This document shows, piece after piece, positions 1 to 30,335 of a DNA stretch of 32,000 nucleotides (position 1 is its first letter; the number at the start of each line of letters is the position of its first letter). The notes under the pieces were generated by a model, which was given only the letters and a program-made list of their open reading frames with translations, was not told the DNA's origin and did no database searches. Both the position numbers and the translations under genes were made by a program. Location of the stretch: positions 30,001 to 62,000 of the forward strand of contig NC_000909.1 in the NCBI RefSeq assembly GCF_000091665.1, in the 5' to 3' direction. The stretch is from Methanocaldococcus jannaschii DSM 2661. GTDB taxonomy: Archaea; AGJL01; Methanococci; Methanococcales; Methanocaldococcaceae.

Positions 1-1085
1 AGCCAGCAGAGTTTGCTCCAATAGCAGTGATGAGAATCTGTGGAATCTGTCAAACCACACACGGAATTGCCTCCTGTGAAGCTATAGAAAACGCTATTGA
101 CTGTGAAGTTCCAGATGATGGTTTGCTATTAAGGGAGTTAGTAGGAATTGGAAATAGATTGCACTCCCACCCATTACACCACCTATTGACAATTGACGAC
201 TTCTTAAAACCAGATGAGACAGATTTAAAAATTGAACTAATAAAATTAATCCAAAGAATGAGAAAGGTTGGACAATTAGTTGTAGATATTGTAGGAGGAG
301 AAGGAATCCACCCACCAAACATTGTAATTGGTGGAATGAGAACAAACATAACAGAGAGAGCTAAATCAAGACTATACTATGCATTAAGACAGTATGAAAA
401 AGATGCCTATGAGTTGTATGAGAAATACACTGAATTAATTGAAAGATACTTAGAAGAGATTGGAATCCCAGACTTAGGAGCTCATGAATATCCATATATA
501 GCAACTCACACAACATACGGAGACAGATATGCAATAAACTGGGATGATGTAACTGAAATTCCAGCCCAAAGATACTACGATGATGAAGAAGCTAAACAAA
601 CAACAACAATCCAAATTCCTTTATATGCTGGAGTTCCTGCTGAAGGAGGGCCAAGAGCAAGAATGGTCAAGTTTGGTAATTTCAGAGAAGGAGGAAGTGC
701 AATGGATATAAATATAGCAAGAGCTCAAGAGAACCTTGGAGCTGTTTATAGAGCTTTAGAGATTTTAGATGAACTCGACTTAAACGGAAAAACAAGAGCT
801 GAGGTAGAATATAAAGATGGCTTTGGAATAGGGGTTCATGAAGCTCCAAGAGCTACAAACACACACATGGCAGAAGTTGGAAAGGATGGAAAAATTAAGA
901 GCTATAGAATTATAGCGGCATCAACATGGAACTTCCCAATTGTTGAAAAGGCAATTGAAGGCTATCCACAGCAGTATGCTGAAGTCATAATGAGAGCTTA
1001 TGATATATGAGCTTCATGTGCAACACACGTTATAGTTAAAGATGAAGAGACAAAAGAGATTATAGAAGTTAGAAAAATGTTATAA
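1..1085 (+). CDS. fruA: F420-reducing [NiFeSe] hydrogenase alpha subunit, 5'-truncated by the window edge; in-frame UGA at 1008-1010 read as selenocysteine, true stop TAA at 1083-1085
   Basis: The frame is open from nt 3 (PAEFAPIAVMRICGIC contains the N-terminal RxCGxC Ni-ligand motif). The track ORF stops at TGA 1008-1010, but the same frame continues ASCATHVIVKDEETKEIIEVRKML*. This gives D-I-U-A-S-C-A-T-H, the C-terminal DPCxxCxxH-type Ni-ligand motif with Sec in place of the first Cys. A SECIS hairpin starts 1 nt after the TAA. Confidence 0.9.
1008..1010 (+). other. UGA selenocysteine codon (recoding site) inside fruA
   Basis: The TGA sits exactly where large-subunit hydrogenases carry the first Cys of the C-terminal metal-binding motif. 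The downstream frame is conserved-looking and a SECIS lies in the 3' UTR. Confidence 0.85.
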
Positions 1086-1119
1086 GCCTCGAGGGGAACC
1101 CGAAAGGGACCCGAGAGGC
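1086..1119 (+). promoter_or_regulatory. Archaeal-type SECIS element in the fruA 3' UTR
   Basis: Sequence GCCUCGAGGGGAACCCGAAAGGGACCCGAGAGGC. It folds as a 5-bp helix (GCCUC/GAGGC), G.A/A.G mismatches, a 3-bp GGG/CCC helix, an asymmetric internal loop GAA opposite A, a 3-bp CCC/GGG helix and a GAAA loop. This is the GC-rich two-helix hairpin with a GAA_A loop known for Methanococcales SECIS. Confidence 0.85.
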
Positions 1120-1121
1120 AT

Positions 1122-1216
1122 AACAGGACTTTCGCAGGAATAAATATTCAATGGAATATAGACATCCAAAGATGTCAAAGTTCCAAAGTGCATATATAAA
1201 CTGCGAAAGTCCTGTT
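1122..1216 (+). repeat. 95-nt extended hairpin between the SECIS and fruD, closed by a perfect 16-bp inverted repeat
   Basis: aacaggactttcgcag (1122-1137) is the exact reverse complement of ctgcgaaagtcctgtt (1201-1216). Inner helices are tggaa/ttcca (1152-1156 with 1181-1185) and gacatc/gatgtc (1161-1166 with 1171-1176), closed by a caaa loop. Confidence 0.6.
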
Positions 1217-2525: not shown

Positions 2526-3374
2526 ATGAATCCTTTTGGTAGCTATAAAAAAGTTGTCTCAGCAAGGAGTACATTAAAAGAAGTTTTAAAGAAGGCTCAG
2601 GATGGGGGAATCGTTTCAACAGCTTTTATTTATGGATTAGAAAATAATTTATTAGATGGAGTTATAGTTGCAGACAACGCTGGGGAGTTTAAGGCAGTTC
2701 CTAAAGTAGCTACAACACCAGAAGAAGTTTTAGAGGCAGCTGGAACAAAATATACAGTCTGCCCAAACATTTCAGTATTAAAGAGTGCTGTTAGAGAATA
2801 TGGCTGTGAAAAAATTGGAGTTGTTGGAACACCTTGCCAAGTTAGAGCTGTAAGAAAGTTGATGAAATATCCAGTAGGATTTAGACACGTTCCAGATAAG
2901 ATTGCTTTAATAATCGGAATCTTCTGTATGGAGAACTTCCCATACTACGGATTGAAGTTGATTGTTGAAGAACACTGTGGAGTTAAGATGGAGGATGTCG
3001 TCAAGATGGATATTGGAAAGGGTAAGTTCTGGGTCTATACAAGATGGGGAGAGACAAAAGCGATTAAATTAAAAGAAACTCATCCTTATGAACAAATCGC
3101 TTGCCATGTTTGTACAGATTATACCGCAGAGTTGGCAGATATTTCAACAGGTTCAGTTGGAAGCCCAGACGGATGGAGCACTGTATTTATAAGAACTGCT
3201 AAGGGAGAAGAAATATTTAACAAAATGGTTGAAGATGGGTATTTAGAAGTTAAACCAATAGAAGAAGTTAAACCAGGATTAGGATTAGTTGAGAAATTAG
3301 CACTGCAAAAGAAAGAGAAAAACATGAAAGAAATCGAACATAGAAAAGAGCTCGGACTACCTATTCCATACTAA
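2526..3374 (+). CDS. fruB: F420-reducing hydrogenase beta subunit (FrhB family, F420/FAD-binding)
   Basis: ATG 2526 lies 6-8 nt behind GAGGTGG; the track start TTG 2511 is less likely. FrhB-family motifs are present ([31 protein letters not shown]). It is the last gene of the fru cluster. Confidence 0.85.
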
Positions 3375-3439
3375 GAGGCACTGCCGAGCGTAGCGAGGCA
3401 GTGCATCCGTTTTGATGAACCTTTTACTAAAAGGTTCAT
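3375..3439 (+). repeat. GC-rich hairpin insert, modules A+B
   Basis: Hairpin A spans 3378-3404: gcactgcc-gagcgtagcga-ggcagtgc. Hairpin B spans 3415-3439: atgaacctttt-act-aaaaggttcat, a perfect 11-bp stem. The same modules recur at other sites in the window. Confidence 0.75.
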
Positions 3440-3490
3440 GTGAAGGAAATAGAGCATAGGAAAGAATTAGGATTACCAGTGCCTTATTAA
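3440..3490 (+). other. Displaced second copy of the last 16 codons plus stop of fruB (not in frame with fruB)
   Basis: 51 nt, 37/51 identical to 3324-3374. It translates to [16 protein letters not shown] versus [16 protein letters not shown]. An oligo-T run follows (3501-3530). Confidence 0.8.
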
Positions 3491-3628
3491 AAATATTACT
3501 ATTTTCTTGTTCTTTTTTTATTTATACTATGCCAATTTTTTCATTTAGGATTATTTTTTTCATCAAAGCTATTTTGATTTATAAGTTTTAAATATCTGAT
3601 GAGGGTATCCTATTTTTGGTGATAAAAA

Positions 3629-5248: not shown

Positions 5249-5329
5249 CTGAGGTATAAATGAACGCCTTCCGAAGGAAGGGCGTTCAAACCTTCCTTAG
5301 TAAATTTTTATTAATTTTGAAAGACACTA
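5221..5329 (+). repeat. Extended hairpin spanning the tfrA stop codon: 15-bp perfect inverted repeat enclosing a GC-rich hairpin
   Basis: tagtgtctttcaaaa (5221-5235) is the reverse complement of ttttgaaagacacta (5315-5329). The central hairpin is tgaacgccttcc-gaa-ggaagggcgttca (5261-5288, one bulged nt). Confidence 0.6.
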
Positions 5330-5369: not shown

Positions 5370-5430
5370 TTGGCTCAGCTGCGGGAGTAGTCATCACAGA
5401 ATCAGATAGCGAAATTGTCATCATCGCCAA
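5370..5430 (-). ncRNA. C/D box sRNA (2'-O-methylation guide)
   Basis: The minus strand reads uuggc-g-AUGAUGA(C)-caauuucgcuau-CUGA(D')-uucu-GUGAUGA(C')-cuacucccgcag-CUGA(D)-gccaa. Both guides are exactly 12 nt, and a 5-bp terminal stem uuggc/gccaa closes the RNA. It starts 7 nt after the sufBD stop. Confidence 0.85.
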
Positions 5431-5436
5431 ATATTT

Positions 5437-6387
5437 TTATAAATCCCCTATCATTCCCTTAACAATTATTTCAGTTGCCTCATCCTCATCCAATCCCTTA
5501 GCCATCAACGTCTCTAACTGCTTTTTATCAACACTTCCAATTGCCGCCTCATGGGTTATTCTTGCTTTATCATCTCTAACAACAACTATTGGGATTGATT
5601 CAACCTCAGCATTTCCTTTAACTATTTCAGCACAATCAATATGTCCTTTGCTGTATGGAGCGTTTCCTTCAATCTTTAACTTTAGGGATATTTTTGAGTT
5701 ATCCATCGCCGCTCCTCTACTCTTTATAATGCATTTAGCATTTTCTCCATTCAACTTAACAACTTCATTAACCTTAACAACATCCTCCTTTATAGCGTAT
5801 GTTCTTGTGGTTATATCAATTATTGCATCTTTTTTGGCAATAATCTCCTGTTCTATATCCAAAGTCCCTATCCTTCCCTTAGTTAATGTGAAGTTTGATA
5901 TATAGATGCCACCTTCATCAATCTCAACTTTTACAGTTGGCTTAACTAAAATATCTCCATCCATTCCATGGTAGTGGAATTCATTATAGGAGAACTTTGC
6001 ATTCTTACCAATCTTTATAATGCCGTTCATAATATGCTTAATTCCTTTACCTTTTGGAAATGAGCAGTGAGACATTAGAGAGATTGAGCTATCCTCCTCT
6101 AAGATGATTTCAACATCTATGATTTGAGATATATTTTCCTCAGTGATTCCAAAGCACATGTGAATTGGGTATTTAAATTTATAGCCTTTTTTAACAATAA
6201 TCTTTGCCTTTATCTTTCCATCCTCTTCCTTCCCTTCTAATATTATTCCTTCATCTCCTTGAACATCAATAATCCTACTCTCTTTAACAATGATTCTTGG
6301 TCCTTTACCATGAACAATCTCTTCAGGTTTTTCAGACGTATATTTAATTGCTTCAATTATTTCCATTAATTCCTCTTTGATGCTCAT
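5437..6387 (-). CDS. FeS cluster assembly protein, SufB/SufD family
   Basis: The C-terminal region ARITHEAAIGSVDKKQLETLMAKGLDEDEATEIIVKGM is typical of SufB/SufD. It lies directly downstream of sufC, and GGGAGAG sits before the ATG. Confidence 0.8.
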   Translation of the reverse strand: MSIKEELMEIIEAIKYTSEKPEEIVHGKGPRIIVKESRIIDVQGDEGIILEGKEEDGKIKAKIIVKKGYKFKYPIHMCFGITEENISQIIDVEIILEEDSSISLMSHCSFPKGKGIKHIMNGIIKIGKNAKFSYNEFHYHGMDGDILVKPTVKVEIDEGGIYISNFTLTKGRIGTLDIEQEIIAKKDAIIDITTRTYAIKEDVVKVNEVVKLNGENAKCIIKSRGAAMDNSKISLKLKIEGNAPYSKGHIDCAEIVKGNAEVESIPIVVVRDDKARITHEAAIGSVDKKQLETLMAKGLDEDEATEIIVKGMIGDL

Positions 6388-6411
6388 TTCTCTCCCTCTG
6401 GGATTTTAATT

Positions 6412-6450
6412 TTATTCCCTCTCCTCTGGGACTTTTTTGTAGCATTTTCC
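6412..6450 (-). other. Displaced second copy of the sufC 3' end (12 codons plus stop)
   Basis: The minus strand reads gga aaa tgc tac aaa aaa gtc cca gag gag agg gaa taa = GKCYKKVPEERE*. The real tail is GKCYKKVPDGK* (6564-6529). Confidence 0.75.
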
Positions 6451-6528
6451 TCAGCATAGGAGAAACTCCTATTGCGATACCTATAACACCTCCTCGCTTC
6501 GCTCGGAGGTGTAAATTATTTTGTAGGA
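6451..6528 (-). repeat. GC-rich hairpin insert, modules A+C (minus orientation)
   Basis: Hairpin A spans 6486-6512; the minus strand reads acacctcc-gagcgaagcga-ggaggtgt. Hairpin C spans 6454-6475; the minus strand reads gcaataggag-ttt-ctcctatgc. Confidence 0.75.
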
Positions 6529-7269
6529 CTATTTTCCATCTGGCACTTTCTTATAGCATTTTCCACACTCTTTTTTATAAAACTCTCCAACTTCCTTTGG
6601 GTCTCCACTCTTTATAACCTCTCCAGCACAGATTAAAGAGACTCTATCGGCATGTTCAGCTAACTCCTCTCTGTGTGTAATAACTAATAAAGAACATCCT
6701 TTATCCTTTAAATAGTCAAAAACTCTCTTAATCTCATCAAATGATACAATATCTATCCCACTATCTGGCTCATCTAAGATAGCCAAATCCGGCTCCATAC
6801 AGATAATTGAAGCTAACTCTATCCTCTTTCGCTCTCCTCCACTTAGTGTTTCATCCACATATCTATCTAAATATTTGTCTGGGTCTAAATTTACCAATTT
6901 TAAAGCTTCCCTAATTTTTTCCTCTGCTATTTCTTTATCTTTCTTATACTTTTCATTCATTCCAAGCATTAAGTAGTTTTTAACTTTAATCCCCTCAAAT
7001 CTTGCAGGTTCCTGCCAAGCTAAAGTCATTCCCATCCTCGCCCTTTCAGTAATATTTTTATCAATTATATCAACACCTTTAAATATAATCCTTCCCTTAG
7101 TTGGTTTATATCCGGAAATTCCCATTATTGTATAAGCTAAGGTTGATTTTCCCGCTCCATTCGGCCCTATAATTGCATGAATCTCATTTTCCTCTACAGT
7201 TAAATTTACACCTTTTAAAATCTCTCTGTTCCCTCTATAAACATGTAAATCCTCTACTTTTAATAACAT
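6529..7269 (-). CDS. sufC: FeS assembly ATPase SufC (ABC ATPase)
   Basis: Walker A GPNGAGKST, signature LSGGERKR, Walker B LAILDEPDSGID. The ATG at 7269 (MLLKVEDL) lies 5 nt behind GGTGA. The track start at 7281 is a GTG inside that SD. Confidence 0.9.
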   Translation of the reverse strand: MLLKVEDLHVYRGNREILKGVNLTVEENEIHAIIGPNGAGKSTLAYTIMGISGYKPTKGRIIFKGVDIIDKNITERARMGMTLAWQEPARFEGIKVKNYLMLGMNEKYKKDKEIAEEKIREALKLVNLDPDKYLDRYVDETLSGGERKRIELASIICMEPDLAILDEPDSGIDIVSFDEIKRVFDYLKDKGCSLLVITHREELAEHADRVSLICAGEVIKSGDPKEVGEFYKKECGKCYKKVPDGK

Positions 7270-7406
7270 GATACTCACCAAAAATTATAAATAGGTCTTT
7301 TGTGAATGTTCATTAAAAGCGGATATATTTTTAATAGCTCATACAATAAAAAGATTACCATATCGATAAAATAAAAATAACAAAAACATGCCAGGTCTCT
7401 TCAGAC

Positions 7407-7504
7407 CCATAGGGAAACCCCTATTGAGATACCCGAGTGGGGCTTCACTACGTTCAGCCCCACTGTAGTCTAGTATCCCAATAGGGCGAAGCCCTATGGA
7501 AATA
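7407..7504 (-). repeat. GC-rich hairpin insert, modules C-A-C, flanked by 25-nt direct repeats
   Basis: Hairpin C spans 7407-7426 and hairpin A spans 7436-7464 (agtggggc...gccccact; the minus-strand core is ugaacguagugaa). A second hairpin C spans 7477-7499 (cccaataggg-cgaag-ccctatgg). Direct repeats at 7382-7406 and 7505-7529 are 23/25 identical. Confidence 0.75.
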
Positions 7505-7550
7505 AAAAACATGCCAGGTCTCTTTGGACTGGCGACCATCGGGTGATAGA

Positions 7551-8012
7551 ATGGCAAGAATGCACGCAAGAAAAAGAGGTCGCTCCGGTTCAAAGAGACC
7601 CGTCAGGAAGGAAGTTCCTGAATGGGTCCAATACACACCGGAGCAAGTAGAGCAGTTAGTAGTAGAGTTAGCTAAGAAAGGTTACCAGTCAGCACAGATT
7701 GGTTTGATATTGAGAGATACCTACGGAATTCCAGATGTTAAGTTAATTACTGGTAAAAAAATCAGTAAGATTATGAAAGAACACGGCTTATATCCAAAAG
7801 TTCCAGAGGATTTATTGAACTTAATGAGAAGAGCTGTCAATTTAAGAAAACACTTAGAACAGCACCCAAAAGACTTGCACTCAAAGAGAGGTTTGCAGTT
7901 AATTGAATCAAAGATTAGAAGATTAGTCAAATACTACAAGTCAAAAGGTGTGTTACCAGCAGATTGGAGATACACACCAGAAACAGCAAGATTGTTGGTC
8001 GAACAAGCATAA
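7551..8012 (+). CDS. rps15: 30S ribosomal protein S15 (uS15, S15P/S13e)
   Basis: [17 protein letters not shown] is the conserved archaeal N-terminus. The ATG at 7551 lies behind GGTGAT. The track start at 7524 falls in the repeat element. Confidence 0.95.
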
Positions 8013-9443: not shown

Positions 9444-9476
9444 AAAATTTCACCCTTCATTTAAATCTACGAATAT

Positions 9477-9611
9477 ATCGGAGCAATAAACACCCTGGAC
9501 TTAATTTACACCTCCGAGCGTAGCGAGGAGGTGTTAGGTTTTGATGAAACCGAAGCATTAGCTTCGGGCTATGAAAACTCGGAGAGTTTTCATTTAACTT
9601 TTTCTAAAAGT
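9477..9611 (+). repeat. Composite GC-rich hairpin insert (module A, two extra perfect hairpins, degenerate module B), flanked by 21-nt direct repeats
   Basis: Hairpin A spans 9508-9534 (acacctcc-gagcgtagcga-ggaggtgt). Further hairpins are ccgaagc-atta-gcttcgg (9550-9567), atgaaaactc-gga-gagttttcat (9571-9593) and aactttt-tct-aaaagtt (9596-9612). Direct repeats at 9456-9476 and 9612-9632 are 18/21 identical. Confidence 0.7.
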
Positions 9612-9650
9612 TTCATTTAAATTTACAAATTTAAAGGAGTAATAAAAAAA

Positions 9651-10437: not shown

Positions 10438-10495
10438 GCCTCTGAAAGAGGCAACTTAATGCATCTGTTTTGATCAACCTTTTTCTAAAAGGTTG
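10438..10495 (+). repeat. Hairpin insert: short GC hairpin plus module B, overlapping the pus10 stop
   Basis: gcctc-tgaaa-gaggc spans 10438-10452. gcatctgttttgatcaacctttttctaaaaggttg (10461-10495) closely matches gcatccgttttgatgaaccttttactaaaaggttca at 3402-3438. Confidence 0.7.
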
Positions 10496-11790
10496 TTATC
10501 GTGTATTTTCAAAACATCTAATTCCTTACAGATACAGTTTTTATTTAATATAGATGAGACTGATGGGTTTGTTCTCCCATCATCTCCACTGATTAGCTCT
10601 TTTATATATAATCCACCATCACAATATATAATCATCTCAAAATGATTGTCATCTACTTTACTGGTTTTAACTTTATATACCTTACGGATTCTCTCTAAAT
10701 CAGCTCTTCTATGTAAAACCCTTTTTGGTGTTTTTTGATAGATAGTTCTATTTTCAAGTTCTTTTTCAAGGAGTTTTAGTTCTTCATCAGTAATTTTATC
10801 AGAGCATTCAACTAAAGCCCTATATGTTTTTCTATGTGGAGTGTTTTTAAATATAACTTTATCCTTCCTAACACCAAACTCTAAGTTTAAAACCTCTACT
10901 CTACCATCCTTATTAATTTCCTCAGCAATTTTATTTAAATCAATTTTTCTTATCTTTGGCTCTTTAATCTCTAAAACAAATGGTCTTCCATCTCCAAGCA
11001 TTCTTACATCAATATCTTCTCTCCCAGCTCCATGGAATTTTGCATCTACTCCTTTTGTTGCCTCTAAGAATGGTTTGGCAATAATTTCTTCAACTGATAT
11101 TGGATATTTTTTACCTGTGTAGTTGCAGAGCTCACAACCTTTTCCTCTACACTTTCTGCAAGGCCATCTTGTTTGTGGAATCCCCCTAACTAATTTTCTA
11201 TATCTTCCTTTAATAAATAAAGGATTTATTTGTAGATAGATTTCTTCAGTGTATGGATTTATATGCACAACAATATCTGGATATTCTTTATCTGGGGCTT
11301 TATCTAACCTAACTGCCAACATCTTCCCAAATTCTCTACCAAATTCCTGCTTTATACTCTCCATAAATTCTGTTTCAATCTCTTTCTCAAGGTCTTTAAT
11401 CTCTTCTGGTATGTGAGTTCCAATTAAAAATGTATCAAAATCATATTCTTTTAAAAGTTCAATGGCTTTATTTAACAACTTTTCCATTTTTTGTTTGTTA
11501 AAAATGCCTCTACACCATGGGCAGTTCTCTTTCTCTATCTCTATATCTTCCAATCTTATTTCATCAACTCCACTTTTTGCCAAAGCTTTTAATAACTCTA
11601 ATTCTTCTTCATAATTTATTCCTTTTTCCTTAGCTTTTTTTATCTTTGCCTCAAGTTCCAAAGCTTTATATAGCTTTAACGCCCTACCTCTTTCAGTGTT
11701 TGTTGTATGTAATAACTTAGCATACAACCTTCCAAAGCATCTATCACAGAGAGGATATTTTTTTAATATTTCATAATTTATAATCTCCAT
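10474..11790 (-). CDS. pus10: tRNA pseudouridine synthase Pus10
   Basis: N-terminal zinc ligands CDRCFGR, CPWCRG and [12 protein letters not shown]. The catalytic region is [14 protein letters not shown]. The ATG at 11790 (MEIINYE) lies behind GGGGAG. Confidence 0.85.
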
Positions 11791-18656: not shown

Positions 18657-18795
18657 GATACCACCATTTTTATTCAATTTTTAATTTCTGTTATTTTTGC
18701 TATTAAATACTTTTTATAAAATATTAATTGTTATATTCAAATATATTGATAAAGATAAAAACAAAATAACAATAAGCTGATTTTAATTAAAACAG

Positions 18796-19115
18796 AATCC
18801 CATTCCGAAACGGTCTGATTTTAATTATCTTATAAATTAAAAGCATTGAAATATAATACTCATCCGTTTCCATCCTCTATCCATTCTCTAAGAGGTCTGA
18901 TTTTAATCTTCAGTAAATACTGTTTTAATGCCTTCAATCTTATCTATTTCCATCCTCCAAGAGGTCTGATTTTAACAATTATTTGGGAAAAGGGAAAAGT
19001 ATCAATAACAGATAAATTTCCATTCCGAAACGGTCTGATTTTAACTAACGCCAAAAACCTCCATTACCCCCAGCATAACAACTGGATTTCCATTCCGAAA
19101 CGGTCTGATTTTAAC
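18796..19115 (-). CRISPR. CRISPR array with 5 repeats and 4 spacers (40, 38, 39 and 40 nt); transcribed strand inferred as minus
   Basis: Repeats lie at 19086-19115 and 19016-19045 (minus strand GTTAAAATCAGACCGTTTCGGAATGGAAAT). The repeat at 18946-18976 is a variant, GTTAAAATCAGACCTCTTGGAGGATGGAAAT. The repeat at 18866-18907 is that variant with an 11-nt internal duplication. The repeat at 18796-18825 is degenerate. Degeneration increases away from the AT-rich 400-bp non-coding block at 19116-19515. Confidence 0.9.
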
Positions 19116-29466: not shown

Positions 29467-30225
29467 GTGATTGGTATAATAGGAGGGACAGGAATAGCTG
29501 AAATATTAAAAGGAGACAAAGAAGAGATTATAAATACAAAATATGGGAAAGCAAGAGTTATAATTGATAAAGAAAACGAAGTAGTTTTGTTATTTAGGCA
29601 TGGAGTAAGACATAACATCCCACCACATAAAATAAACTATAGGGCTAACATCTACGCTTTAAAAAAGTTGGGAGTTGAAAGAATATTGGCTATAAATTCA
29701 GTTGGTTCATTAAAAGAAGATTTAAAGCCTGGAATGTTTTTTGTTCCAAATGATTTTATAGAATTTACAAAGAAGAGAGAAGAGACGTTTTACGATGAAG
29801 GAAAAGTTGTTCATATAGATATGACAGACCCTTACTGTCCAGAGTTGAGAAATATTTTAAAATCAATATTAGATAAAAATAACTTCTCTTATGGAGAAGG
29901 CGTTTATGTTTGCACTGAAGGACCGAGATTTGAAACAAAAAAAGAGATAGCCATATACAAAAACTGGGGGGATGTTGTAGGAATGACTGGATATCCTGAA
30001 GTTGTTTTAGCAAGGGAGTTGGAGATGTGCTATGTCTCTCTATGCAACATAACAAACTATGCCTGTGGAATATCAAAAAATATTTTAACAGTTGATGAAG
30101 TTTTGGAAAAAATAAAAGAGATGGAAAATAAAATTTTGAAAGTTGTTGAGGACTTTATAAATTATGGCTTTGGAGAGAGAAAGTGTATCTGCAAAGATGC
30201 TTTGAAACATGCTGTTATTGGGTAA
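29467..30225 (+). CDS. mtnP: 5'-methylthioadenosine / purine nucleoside phosphorylase (PNP family 2)
   Basis: The GTG start lies behind GGTGAT. Motifs are IGIIGGTG, FRHG..H, EGPRFET and GMT. Confidence 0.85.
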   Translation: MIGIIGGTGIAEILKGDKEEIINTKYGKARVIIDKENEVVLLFRHGVRHNIPPHKINYRANIYALKKLGVERILAINSVGSLKEDLKPGMFFVPNDFIEFTKKREETFYDEGKVVHIDMTDPYCPELRNILKSILDKNNFSYGEGVYVCTEGPRFETKKEIAIYKNWGDVVGMTGYPEVVLARELEMCYVSLCNITNYACGISKNILTVDEVLEKIKEMENKILKVVEDFINYGFGERKCICKDALKHAVIG

Positions 30226-30251
30226 ATTATAAAACTAAAATCCTTTAATTT

Positions 30252-30309
30252 ACACCTCCGAGCGTAAGCGAGGAGGTGTTGGGGTATCCCAATAGGGTTT
30301 CCCTATGGG
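30252..30309 (+). repeat. GC-rich hairpin insert, modules A+C
   Basis: Hairpin A spans 30252-30279 (acacctcc-gagcgtaagcga-ggaggtgt). Hairpin C spans 30288-30309 (cccaataggg-ttt-ccctatggg). Confidence 0.75.
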
Positions 30310-30335
30310 CTTTAAAACATGCTATTATTGGATAA
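30309..30335 (+). other. Displaced second copy of the last 8 codons plus stop of mtnP
   Basis: gct tta aaa cat gct att att gga taa compares with gct ttg aaa cat gct gtt att ggg taa at 30199-30225 (24/27 identical). The peptides are ALKHAIIG* and ALKHAVIG*. Confidence 0.75.

Follow-up and report, generated by a model that had tools for sequence, protein, structure and literature searches.

We analysed a 32,000-nt stretch of Methanocaldococcus jannaschii DSM 2661 DNA (the window; positions are counted from its start), and our view of the genomes comprises this 32-kb window together with the corresponding region from other assemblies. An MJ0043-type gene and the MJ003x gene order of the window point to M. 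jannaschii or a very close strain. The subject is the junction between sufC, which encodes the ABC ATPase of the Suf system, and sufBD, the next gene of the operon, where a non-coding insert of GC-rich hairpins lies between two copies of the sufC 3′ end, only the upstream one of which is translated. The features of the junction are the following.

6529–7269, minus strand: sufC, from the open reading frame (ORF) list; annotated start ATG at 7269, 246 amino acids (aa)
6529–6564, minus strand: T1, the translated tail copy and real end of the sufC ORF, GKCYKKVPDGK plus TAG
6519–6528, minus strand: 10-nt post-stop ‘filler’ tcctacaaaa from T1 to the element, without counterpart after T2
6451–6518, minus strand: element E, absent from six orthologous junctions
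6518–6512, minus strand: left motif of E, TAATTTA
6512–6486, minus strand: hairpin A, stem ACACCTCC/GGAGGTGT enclosing GAGCGAAGCGA
6485–6476, minus strand: 10-nt spacer of E from hairpin A to hairpin C, TATAGGTATC
6475–6454, minus strand: hairpin C, GCAATAGGAG-TTT-CTCCTATGC, with one bulged A
6453–6451, minus strand: right terminus of E, TGA(GG), an in-frame TGA directly before T2
6412–6450, minus strand: T2, the untranslated downstream tail copy, which would read GKCYKKVPEERE and a stop
6384–6407, minus strand: ‘third copy’, an echo aaaatcccagagg (6407–6395) fused to the sufBD Shine-Dalgarno region, with a TGA within the sufBD ATG AGC
5437–6387, minus strand: sufBD (SUFBD_core), from the ORF list and public records

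Public assemblies contain the exact 246-aa SufC product in 56 blocks, and Pfam ABC_tran/SMC_N is listed for it there. T1, preceded by gag tgt, reads gga aaa tgc tat aag aaa gtg cca gat gga aaa tag, and T2 reads gga aaa tgc tac aaa aaa gtc cca gag gag agg gaa taa. A previous sequence-only reading of this DNA had proposed that the sufC 3′ end is duplicated around an insert of hairpins A and C, with which both the sequences and the empty sites of relatives agree, and it had counted correctly that the first nine codons of the two copies differ four times, always at the third position, with three changes silent (Y, K, V) and one exchanging D and E. In a repeat search the two tails form a 29-nt direct repeat of 86% identity with a spacing of 114, beyond which they are unalignable. 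The total insert between them, consisting of the filler, TAATTTA, hairpin A and hairpin C, is 78 nt long, and its predicted fold has an energy of −27.1 kcal/mol as RNA (z = −4.2) and −14.7 as DNA (z = −4.2); the interior of hairpin A contains tandem G-A/A-G mismatches, forming an internal loop, and a GCGAAGC mini-hairpin cap. In-frame translation of T2 is closed by the TGA directly upstream, and no start codon is present. Because the locus is identical across ten independent assemblies carrying exactly this SufC, an assembly artefact is excluded. Several public assemblies call a 34-aa ORF (6353–6457, minus strand) that starts inside hairpin C and runs across T2 into sufBD; it is almost certainly spurious.

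Eleven orthologous sufC–sufBD junctions were read from Methanocaldococcus relatives and metagenome-assembled genomes (MAGs), which carry L-numbers here (L088 is M. vulcanius, L007 is M. indicus and L002 is a MAG). Six of the eleven are empty (L001, L004, L005, L006, L007 and L089): hairpins are absent, and the stretch from the sufC stop to the sufBD ATG, 1 to about 90 nt long, contains a Shine-Dalgarno-like GGGGAG or GAGGGA. The remaining five are occupied at the same position (L002, L088, L015/L090 and, with hairpin A only, L091). The A+C unit at sufC is an insertion. Its flanking repeat measures 53 nt at 96% identity in M. vulcanius, 48 nt of it exact, and is a perfect 45 nt in L002, and in all genomes that retain hairpin C (the window, L002, L088 and L015/L090) the downstream tail copy begins at the same codons (GGAAAATGC). 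A locus-specific variant of E, with 2–3 differences in ~63 nt compared with 13–19% in the flanking genes, is common to the window, L002 and M. vulcanius; between the window and M. vulcanius, 2 of 63 positions of the E core differ (P about 0.004 against the flanks), and the sufC unit is the sole copy of hairpin A within 20 kb of M. vulcanius. In L090 and L015 a second, different element, a MITE (miniature inverted-repeat transposable element) whose terminal inverted repeats are 16 nt long (CACAGAACTTTCACAG), sits nested between hairpins A and C; its position in L090 is about 1775–1895. The T2 of L090 has a 1-nt indel, and by a 1-nt indel its SufC ends at a TAA inside the TTAATTTA motif of the element, with the tail KKVPEGKGMN. 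The other tails among relatives read KKVPEEK, KKVPEGK (M. vulcanius; the L090 tail too reads KKVPEGK before its last residues), KKVPDEKE, KFQRD, KPFQ and KLG, and since only GKCYK is conserved, the C-terminal end of SufC is labile. Further inside the gene, a 24-nt tandem repeat (6553–6600, minus strand; KEVGEFYK/KECGKCYK) is found again at 10672–10719 of L088 and 10685–10732 of L002 with 71–75% DNA identity and is visible too in a Methanotorris protein; it is an older duplication of the same gene end, without an insert.

The sufC unit belongs to a family of hairpin elements. The window contains hairpin A four times, three times in canonical form and once as a stem variant, where the expected number for the 27-mer is 0. 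Hairpin clusters occupy five intergenic window sites, and relatives and metagenome contigs contain further copies. Modules A, B, C, D and others recur in varied combinations and orientations. The four further window clusters, at two gene tails (frhB, mtnP) and two promoter regions, are flanked by direct repeats of 24–51 nt and are laid out as follows.

3324–3490, plus strand: frhB-like gene site; T1 3324–3374, insert 3375–3439 (65 nt), T2 3440–3490
7376–7524, minus strand: sufC/rps15 divergent promoter region; three-hairpin cluster 7402–7500 flanked by 24–26-nt copies of aagagacctggcatgttttt
9456–9646, plus strand: rpoF/DUF655 spacer; cluster 9491–9611 including hairpin A at 9508–9534 and nested extra hairpins, in opposite orientation
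30199–30335, plus strand: mtnP-like gene site; T1 30199–30225 (ALKHAVIG and stop), filler, A and C 30226–30308, T2 30309–30335 (ALKHAIIG and stop)

Empty orthologous sites are known for all five loci. The frhB insert, composed of an A-variant hairpin whose stem is altered on both sides (CACTGCC/GGCAGTG, 3379–3403) and a B hairpin, is missing in L001, L005, L015 and L090; the sufC/rps15 cluster is missing in six relatives, of which L004, L005 and L006 have the whole flank sequence once; the rpoF/DUF655 site, where the flanks are 35-nt copies (83%) of a promoter segment with a TATA-like box, is empty in L001, L002, L005 and L006 and occupied in L003; and the mtnP site, at which the order of tail, A, C and tail copy recurs just as it had been read before, is empty in L094. 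In the promoter-proximal copy of the rpoF/DUF655 site, tttaaatt has become gatatatt in the window and is agtatatt in L003.

A uniform flank scan was applied to 21 hairpin-A clusters from the window, relatives and metagenome contigs, with 400 random window positions as the null. A flanking direct repeat scoring 16 or more was found in 14 of the 21, the null having a mean of 10.1, a 95th percentile of 13 and a 99th percentile of 20, and the local-alignment score of the sufC flanks is 19 on this scale. In two-hairpin units the period, measured between the starts of T1 and T2, is 106–118 nt (114 at sufC; 110, 116 and 118 among the others), which implies a unit of about 63–66 nt and a duplication of about 45–52 nt. 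Where the alignable repeat is shorter, as at sufC and mtnP in the window, the missing part is the non-coding post-stop stretch beside hairpin A, and non-matching stretches comparable to the sufC filler lie on the hairpin-A side at mtnP (18 nt), at the rpoF/DUF655 site (10 nt) and in L084 (10 nt). A metagenome scan with a hairpin-A core pattern returned 52 matches, of which 35 in GC-rich contigs (GC at least 0.42) were set aside as probable chance matches. Among AT-rich contigs, L043, L055, L068, L071, L084 and L086 have the architecture of target copy, element and target copy (T-E-T): L071 contains a T-E-T-E-T array behind a CbiX-like gene, L086 a 55-nt duplication of the tail of a fibrillarin-like gene, and in L055 and L084 the Shine-Dalgarno region and start codon are duplicated, with one copy in L055 decayed (ATG to ATA plus indels). 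As for the hairpins themselves, one compensatory pair, in L039, was seen among eight aligned copies, and the variant A stem of L091 still pairs (ACATCTCC/GGAGATGT), so far as sequence comparison goes consistent with conserved structures. One arm of hairpin A is anti-Shine-Dalgarno-like (ACACCTCC) and the other Shine-Dalgarno-like (GGAGGTG). An Rfam scan of the window at gathering thresholds matched only sR39 and CRISPR repeats, and in a permissive scan of 6350–6600 no family matched, the best being GA-cis with E = 0.26 and 17 bits against a threshold of 34.7.

The divergence between tail copies is biased towards silent positions, as had been proposed before from fewer sites, and this holds over six duplicated coding tails: in 219 aligned nt the 31 differences are distributed over codon positions 1/2/3 as 5/0/26, with 24 differing codons synonymous and 5 non-synonymous. 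Such a distribution has P = 1e-8 against a uniform spread and P = 1e-5 against a model in which T1 accepts synonymous changes only and T2 is neutral. At frhB, 14 of 51 nt differ between T1 and T2, yet 10 of the 12 differing codons are synonymous and T2 keeps 15 of 16 residues. The haplotypes of the copies point in different directions: at sufC the tac/aaa of the window T2 is that of the closest relatives, L089 and L091, and the tat/aag/gtg of T1 is that of L001, L015 and L090. L091 provides the clearest configuration, differing from its empty-site sister L089 at 3 of 113 upstream positions; its T2 remnant matches the L089 tail without a difference in 31 nt, whereas its T1 departs from that tail by three third-position changes and a codon indel beside the element, and T1 of L091 was therefore not copied from the resident tail. 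In the 120 nt left of the frhB insert only 3 positions differ from L001, where the background is about 11% and T2 differs at 11 of 51, so that this left flank looks like a recombination tract ending at the insert. The frhB T2 diverges at 10–12 of 51 positions, more than any orthologous tail compared, and may come from a more distant lineage or from a paralogue. In the L071 array each outer T departs from the middle copy, which is common ground for both, only on its outer side; the mtnP T2 variants are present as alleles in L096. Mismatch counts between genomes swing from 1 to 19 per 60–90 nt, which suggests that Methanocaldococcus genomes are mosaic. A sliding-window comparison was informative only at frhB: around sufC every relative is 7–20% diverged, and the donor of the window T1 was not singled out. 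From these mosaic patterns we infer that T1 and T2 are different alleles of a functional tail, joined by inter-lineage recombination. Accordingly read, the silent bias reflects neither decay nor selection on T2, and allelic recombination explains it better than any function of T2 would. Gene conversion between T1 and T2 was rejected as the source of the bias, as by reasoning it predicts only about 40% synonymous-type differences.

As a whole, the explanation that we favour, with a probability of about 0.6, is insertion of a palindromic element, duplication of its target and allelic recombination of the resulting tails; the insertion, the flanking duplication across the family and the codon-position bias are its observed components. 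The sufC–sufBD spacer holds a single non-coding palindromic element built of GC-rich modules (A and C, about 65 nt), and the entry of such a unit into a short spacer would directly duplicate a target of roughly 25–56 bp, or about 45–52 bp for two-hairpin units. Because intergenic spacers in M. jannaschii measure only tens of bases, the duplication reaches into the neighbouring gene, and at sufC the duplicated stretch would correspond to the last 9–12 codons, the stop and a few bases, with T1 staying joined to the gene and translated and T2 left as an untranslated relic. The anatomy suggests why gene tails in particular are copied: a duplication of about 50 bp next to a unit that lies past the stop would take in the tail, inserts within an ORF would be lost, and the same would apply to promoters and starts. 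The alleles could then have come together by two routes, either recombination with relatives that overwrites one copy up to the heterologous insert, or import of the insert together with the adjacent tail of the donor, and by either one copy would be replaced by sequence that selection had filtered in another lineage. For the duplication itself, staggered cuts by a trans-acting integrase and microhomology template switching appear roughly equal as sources, with a slight lean towards template switching. A bolder version, which we consider unlikely, holds that the units spread by an undescribed route that copies about 45–52 bp of target and move between lineages as ‘tail-replacing’ cassettes. 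Each unit would bring the working gene end of its donor and leave the resident end behind, and the copying could be microhomology-primed template switching onto a very stable GCGAAGC-capped DNA hairpin at 85 degrees C, or the work of an integrase cutting nearly five helical turns apart. If so, the units would systematically give rise to new C-termini, the KKVPEGKGMN of L090 among them, and would be natural markers of recombination breakpoints.

Several observations weigh against the explanation by insertion, target duplication and recombination. No transposase or integrase was found, nor an autonomous partner in plasmid, phage and viral collections; in the search for a parent element, the 70-nt unit had no blastn match among plasmids and phages, and a scan of viral contigs gave two GC-rich chance matches. 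The element has no terminal inverted repeats, its left end TAATTTACACCTCC and right end CTATGCTGAGG not being inverted copies of each other. It is also far more conserved than its flanks, which could mean a host function and not a selfish element. On its own sufC carries little statistical weight, with four informative differences and a tail that is poorly conserved beyond GKCYK. Moreover, in four or five lineages the sufC insertions look like orthologues, with a shared left boundary at GGAAAATGC and a shared E variant, and yet in M. vulcanius and L002 the tail copies are (near-)identical, each duplicating a lineage-specific tail and post-stop sequence, so that an extra assumption is needed, namely T1/T2 gene conversion or repeated re-insertion. 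Finally, the last T copy in L002, L071 and L088 ends with 5–8 nt of the left motif of the element, which does not fit a clean target-site duplication with fixed ends. These tails suggest that T2 is sometimes copied again from T1 by gene conversion or slippage that extends slightly, by a few bases, into E, or else that the left junction formed at AT-rich microhomology, with no fixed transposon end. Gene conversion, although rejected above as the source of the silent bias, is still needed for the (near-)perfect copies of M. vulcanius and L002. At the right junction there are short microhomologies, TGAGG/TGTGG at sufC and CATG at frhB.

The sequence-only reading went further and took 6407–6384 for a third partial copy, from which it derived an ancestral sufC stop translationally coupled to sufBD through an ATGA overlap and a tail duplicated twice. 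An echo is indeed present, although its match to aaagtcccagagg is 12/13 and not 13/14; it lies 28 nt downstream of its T2 counterpart in a frame that ends at the TGA of ATGA, the tails of M. vulcanius and L090 (KKVPEGK) resemble its KIPEGEK, and the older 24-nt tandem repeat in sufC (KEVGEFYK/KECGKCYK) attests to an earlier duplication of this 3′ end. What speaks for a second duplication is weak, a 10–13-nt echo of T2, the rest being conserved Shine-Dalgarno region. In empty-site relatives the 3′ half (gggagagaaatga) has its orthologue in the sufBD Shine-Dalgarno region, and it aligns with that of L089 and L091 (ggggagaaaatg); in comparison with L091 and with L089, the closest empty site, the window has about 15 extra bases (aattaaaatcccaga), and the remainder, gggagagaaatgagc, is the conserved Shine-Dalgarno region and the sufBD start. 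An unrelated 1-mismatch match to the echo 13-mer stands at 7797, one of four window matches at up to 2 mismatches against 0.67 expected. When the junctions of relatives were compared, no ATGA overlap appeared in any of the eleven: stop and ATG are separated in all six empty ones, and the insert separates the genes in the occupied ones. Since sufBD opens with ATG AGC, ATGA is intrinsic to its start, and each upstream frame would end there with a probability of one in three; the gene begins ATG AGC or AGT in relatives and ATG GTT in one. The loss of an ancestral sufC–sufBD coupling does not hold, and a history in which 6407–6384 is the original, overlapping tail is improbable. We regard as quite improbable, too, that a plain target-site duplication was followed by independent mutation only, T1 being constrained, T2 decaying neutrally and the third-position pattern of sufC being chance. 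With only four differences at sufC the probability that all are third-position is about 0.01–0.04 under this account, and decayed copies do exist in L055 (ATG to ATA, indels) and in the T2 of L090 (1-nt indel), but the 5/0/26 distribution over six sites has P = 1e-5 even under that very model, frhB T2 retains 15 of 16 residues despite 14 nucleotide differences, and the L091 T2 remnant is the resident L089 allele whereas T1 differs.

Two further accounts assign a function to the locus. The A+C unit could be selected by the host, for RNA 3′-end formation, processing or stability or as a protein-binding DNA hairpin uncoupling sufC from sufBD, with the tail copy as a by-product. This is compatible with insertion and target duplication and agrees with the 2/63 differences of the E variant between the window and M. 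vulcanius against 13–19% in the flanks, with the absence of any other hairpin A from 20 kb of M. vulcanius, with stems that stay paired through changes, and with the anti-Shine-Dalgarno-like (ACACCTCC) and Shine-Dalgarno-like (GGAGGTG) arms; however, six relatives, the closest (L089) among them, have an empty junction, the unit stands in both orientations to transcription (rpoF/DUF655 site) and in promoter regions, and no Rfam family matches (GA-cis, E = 0.26, 17 bits against 34.7), so that we hold this account to be doubtful. Far more remote is the idea that T2 itself is functional, the 114-nt period of tail and element being removed from DNA or RNA or bypassed by the ribosome and both tails being selected. 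The strongly coding-like conservation of untranslated copies and a sufC period that is a multiple of three would agree with it, but the periods of 110, 116 and 118 are not such multiples, an in-frame TGA precedes T2, hairpin A is not a bulge-helix-bulge motif and the predicted fold consists of two plain hairpins, the ten independent assemblies display no length polymorphism at the sufC site, and non-coding promoter segments are duplicated as well. Read-through, bypass and archaeal splicing into T2 are accordingly ruled out by frame, by the TGA and by the periods that are not multiples of three. A diversity-generating retroelement was rejected because the sufC differences (t/c, g/a, g/c, t/g) and those at frhB, which are of all types, are not confined to adenines. 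Off-target integration by Cas1-Cas2 in CRISPR-like fashion was rejected since the duplications of 25–56 nt do not have a fixed repeat length (30 nt here), the insert is a conserved 65-nt family member, and Rfam CRISPR matches are confined to 18.8–19.1 kb.

Among known systems, the nearest are repeats of M. jannaschii itself. Suyama, Lathe and Bork are said to have described, in FEBS Lett in 2005, the palindromic repetitive elements MJRE1-3 of this organism, in an abstract that reportedly stresses their coding potential. In the passages of PMC2229807 and PMC2996958 that cite the MJRE report (Suyama et al. 2005), coding potential is emphasised and flanking duplications are not mentioned. Like MJRE, the window elements are short GC-rich palindromes of the same organism group, multi-copy and mainly extragenic, with some fused to coding regions, and by comparison with the description, rather than with the MJRE1-3 consensus, they most probably are MJRE repeats; again by description, what sets them apart are the 25–56-bp flanking duplications, the duplicated tails and the silent divergence. 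No description of the long flanking duplications or the allelic pattern was found in the searchable literature, which does not extend to the full text of Suyama et al. 2005, and both appear to be undescribed. The window elements also resemble REP/BIME sequences in being mosaics of conserved extragenic palindromes with conservation far above that of the flanks, and differ from them in their long flanking duplications. Bacterial REP/BIME sequences and REPINs are conserved extragenic hairpins downstream of genes, arranged as module mosaics in either orientation and tied to RAYT (Y1) transposases; REP sequences and REPINs are not known to make flanking duplications of such length. With MITEs the elements share small non-coding inserts, presence and absence with empty sites, and direct repeats of the target, but they lack terminal inverted repeats and a related transposase gene, their left-motif junction is not at a fixed base, and their duplications of 25–56 bp compare with 2–15 bp for an ordinary MITE. 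Long variable direct repeats are found with some insertion sequences (IS), such as IS1634 of Mycoplasma mycoides and the IS1182 family. IS200/IS605 derivatives make no target duplication, whereas the window elements have one; an IS200/IS605-derived PATE was considered because the conserved TTAATTTA abuts hairpin A, but it was rejected as long duplications flank the inserts.

Functionally, the arrangement recalls integrative elements in tRNA genes, which have 40–50-bp att repeats, and Allomyces mitochondria, in which a foreign atp6 C-terminus comes with an endonuclease ORF: in both, the insert is accompanied by a working 3′ end and a diverged second copy lies beyond it, from separate lineages. 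The likeness stops there, since those elements have their own integrase or endonuclease and one site, whereas the window insert is 65 nt long, non-coding and at many sites; an att-site integrase model was rejected on the same grounds, the inserts being very small, without coding content and spread over many sites. Fungal mitochondria contain GC clusters and double-hairpin elements which, compared by description, are likewise GC-rich double hairpins that spread in a compact AT-rich genome, sometimes at gene ends, but they have very short or no target duplications and belong to another domain of life. A non-coding hairpin family that reproducibly duplicates 25–56 bp of its target fits no characterised prokaryotic transposition mechanism, and at sufC a known repeat family displays a property that is apparently undescribed and lacks a mechanistic explanation. 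That the family is conserved far more strongly than the genes around it suggests that a protein recognises hairpin A. For genome analysis, the family explains the untranslated ‘ghost’ gene ends, promoters and starts in Methanocaldococcus genomes and the spurious small ORFs called over the copies, such as the 34-aa ORF at 6353–6457. The duplicated tails can be treated as paired allele samples, which would point to frequent short-tract recombination between Methanocaldococcus species, and the SufC case illustrates how C-terminal variation arises in a housekeeping protein.

Some further observations concern other hairpins and neighbouring features of the window. A 35-nt B-type hairpin segment is 91% identical at 10460–10494 and 3402–3436, and the former encodes the last residues and the stop of the Pus10 gene (..NNLLEKG and stop). 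The NLLEK tail of Pus10 is shared by L002 and L088, and in L001, L003, L005 and L006 the tail differs, overlapping the L21e start; an insertion is not clear at this site, where the tail motif is conserved in the same clade. Directly 3′ of sufBD lies the C/D box sRNA sR39 (5373–5428, minus strand; 73.7 bits), and a separate GC-rich hairpin, gaacgccttccgaaggaagggcgttc (5260–5301), follows a fumarate-reductase-like gene. A GC-rich stem-loop, gcctcgaggggaacccgaaagggacccgagaggc at 1079–1141 (plus strand), 3′ of the first hydrogenase-subunit ORF, had no Rfam match at the gathering threshold and may be the archaeal SECIS element of a selenoprotein FruA-type gene. The CRISPR matches belong to a short CRISPR-like array at 18785–19115, with CRISPR-DR13 on the minus strand and CRISPR-DR39 on the plus strand at irregular spacings (82, 69, 70 and 220). 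In L032, an assembly of the same strain, 34 nt of the spacer between the frhB and fumarate-reductase genes (window about 3540–3575) are missing by a deletion between short AT-rich repeats, the only polymorphism among the ten assemblies at the regions compared.

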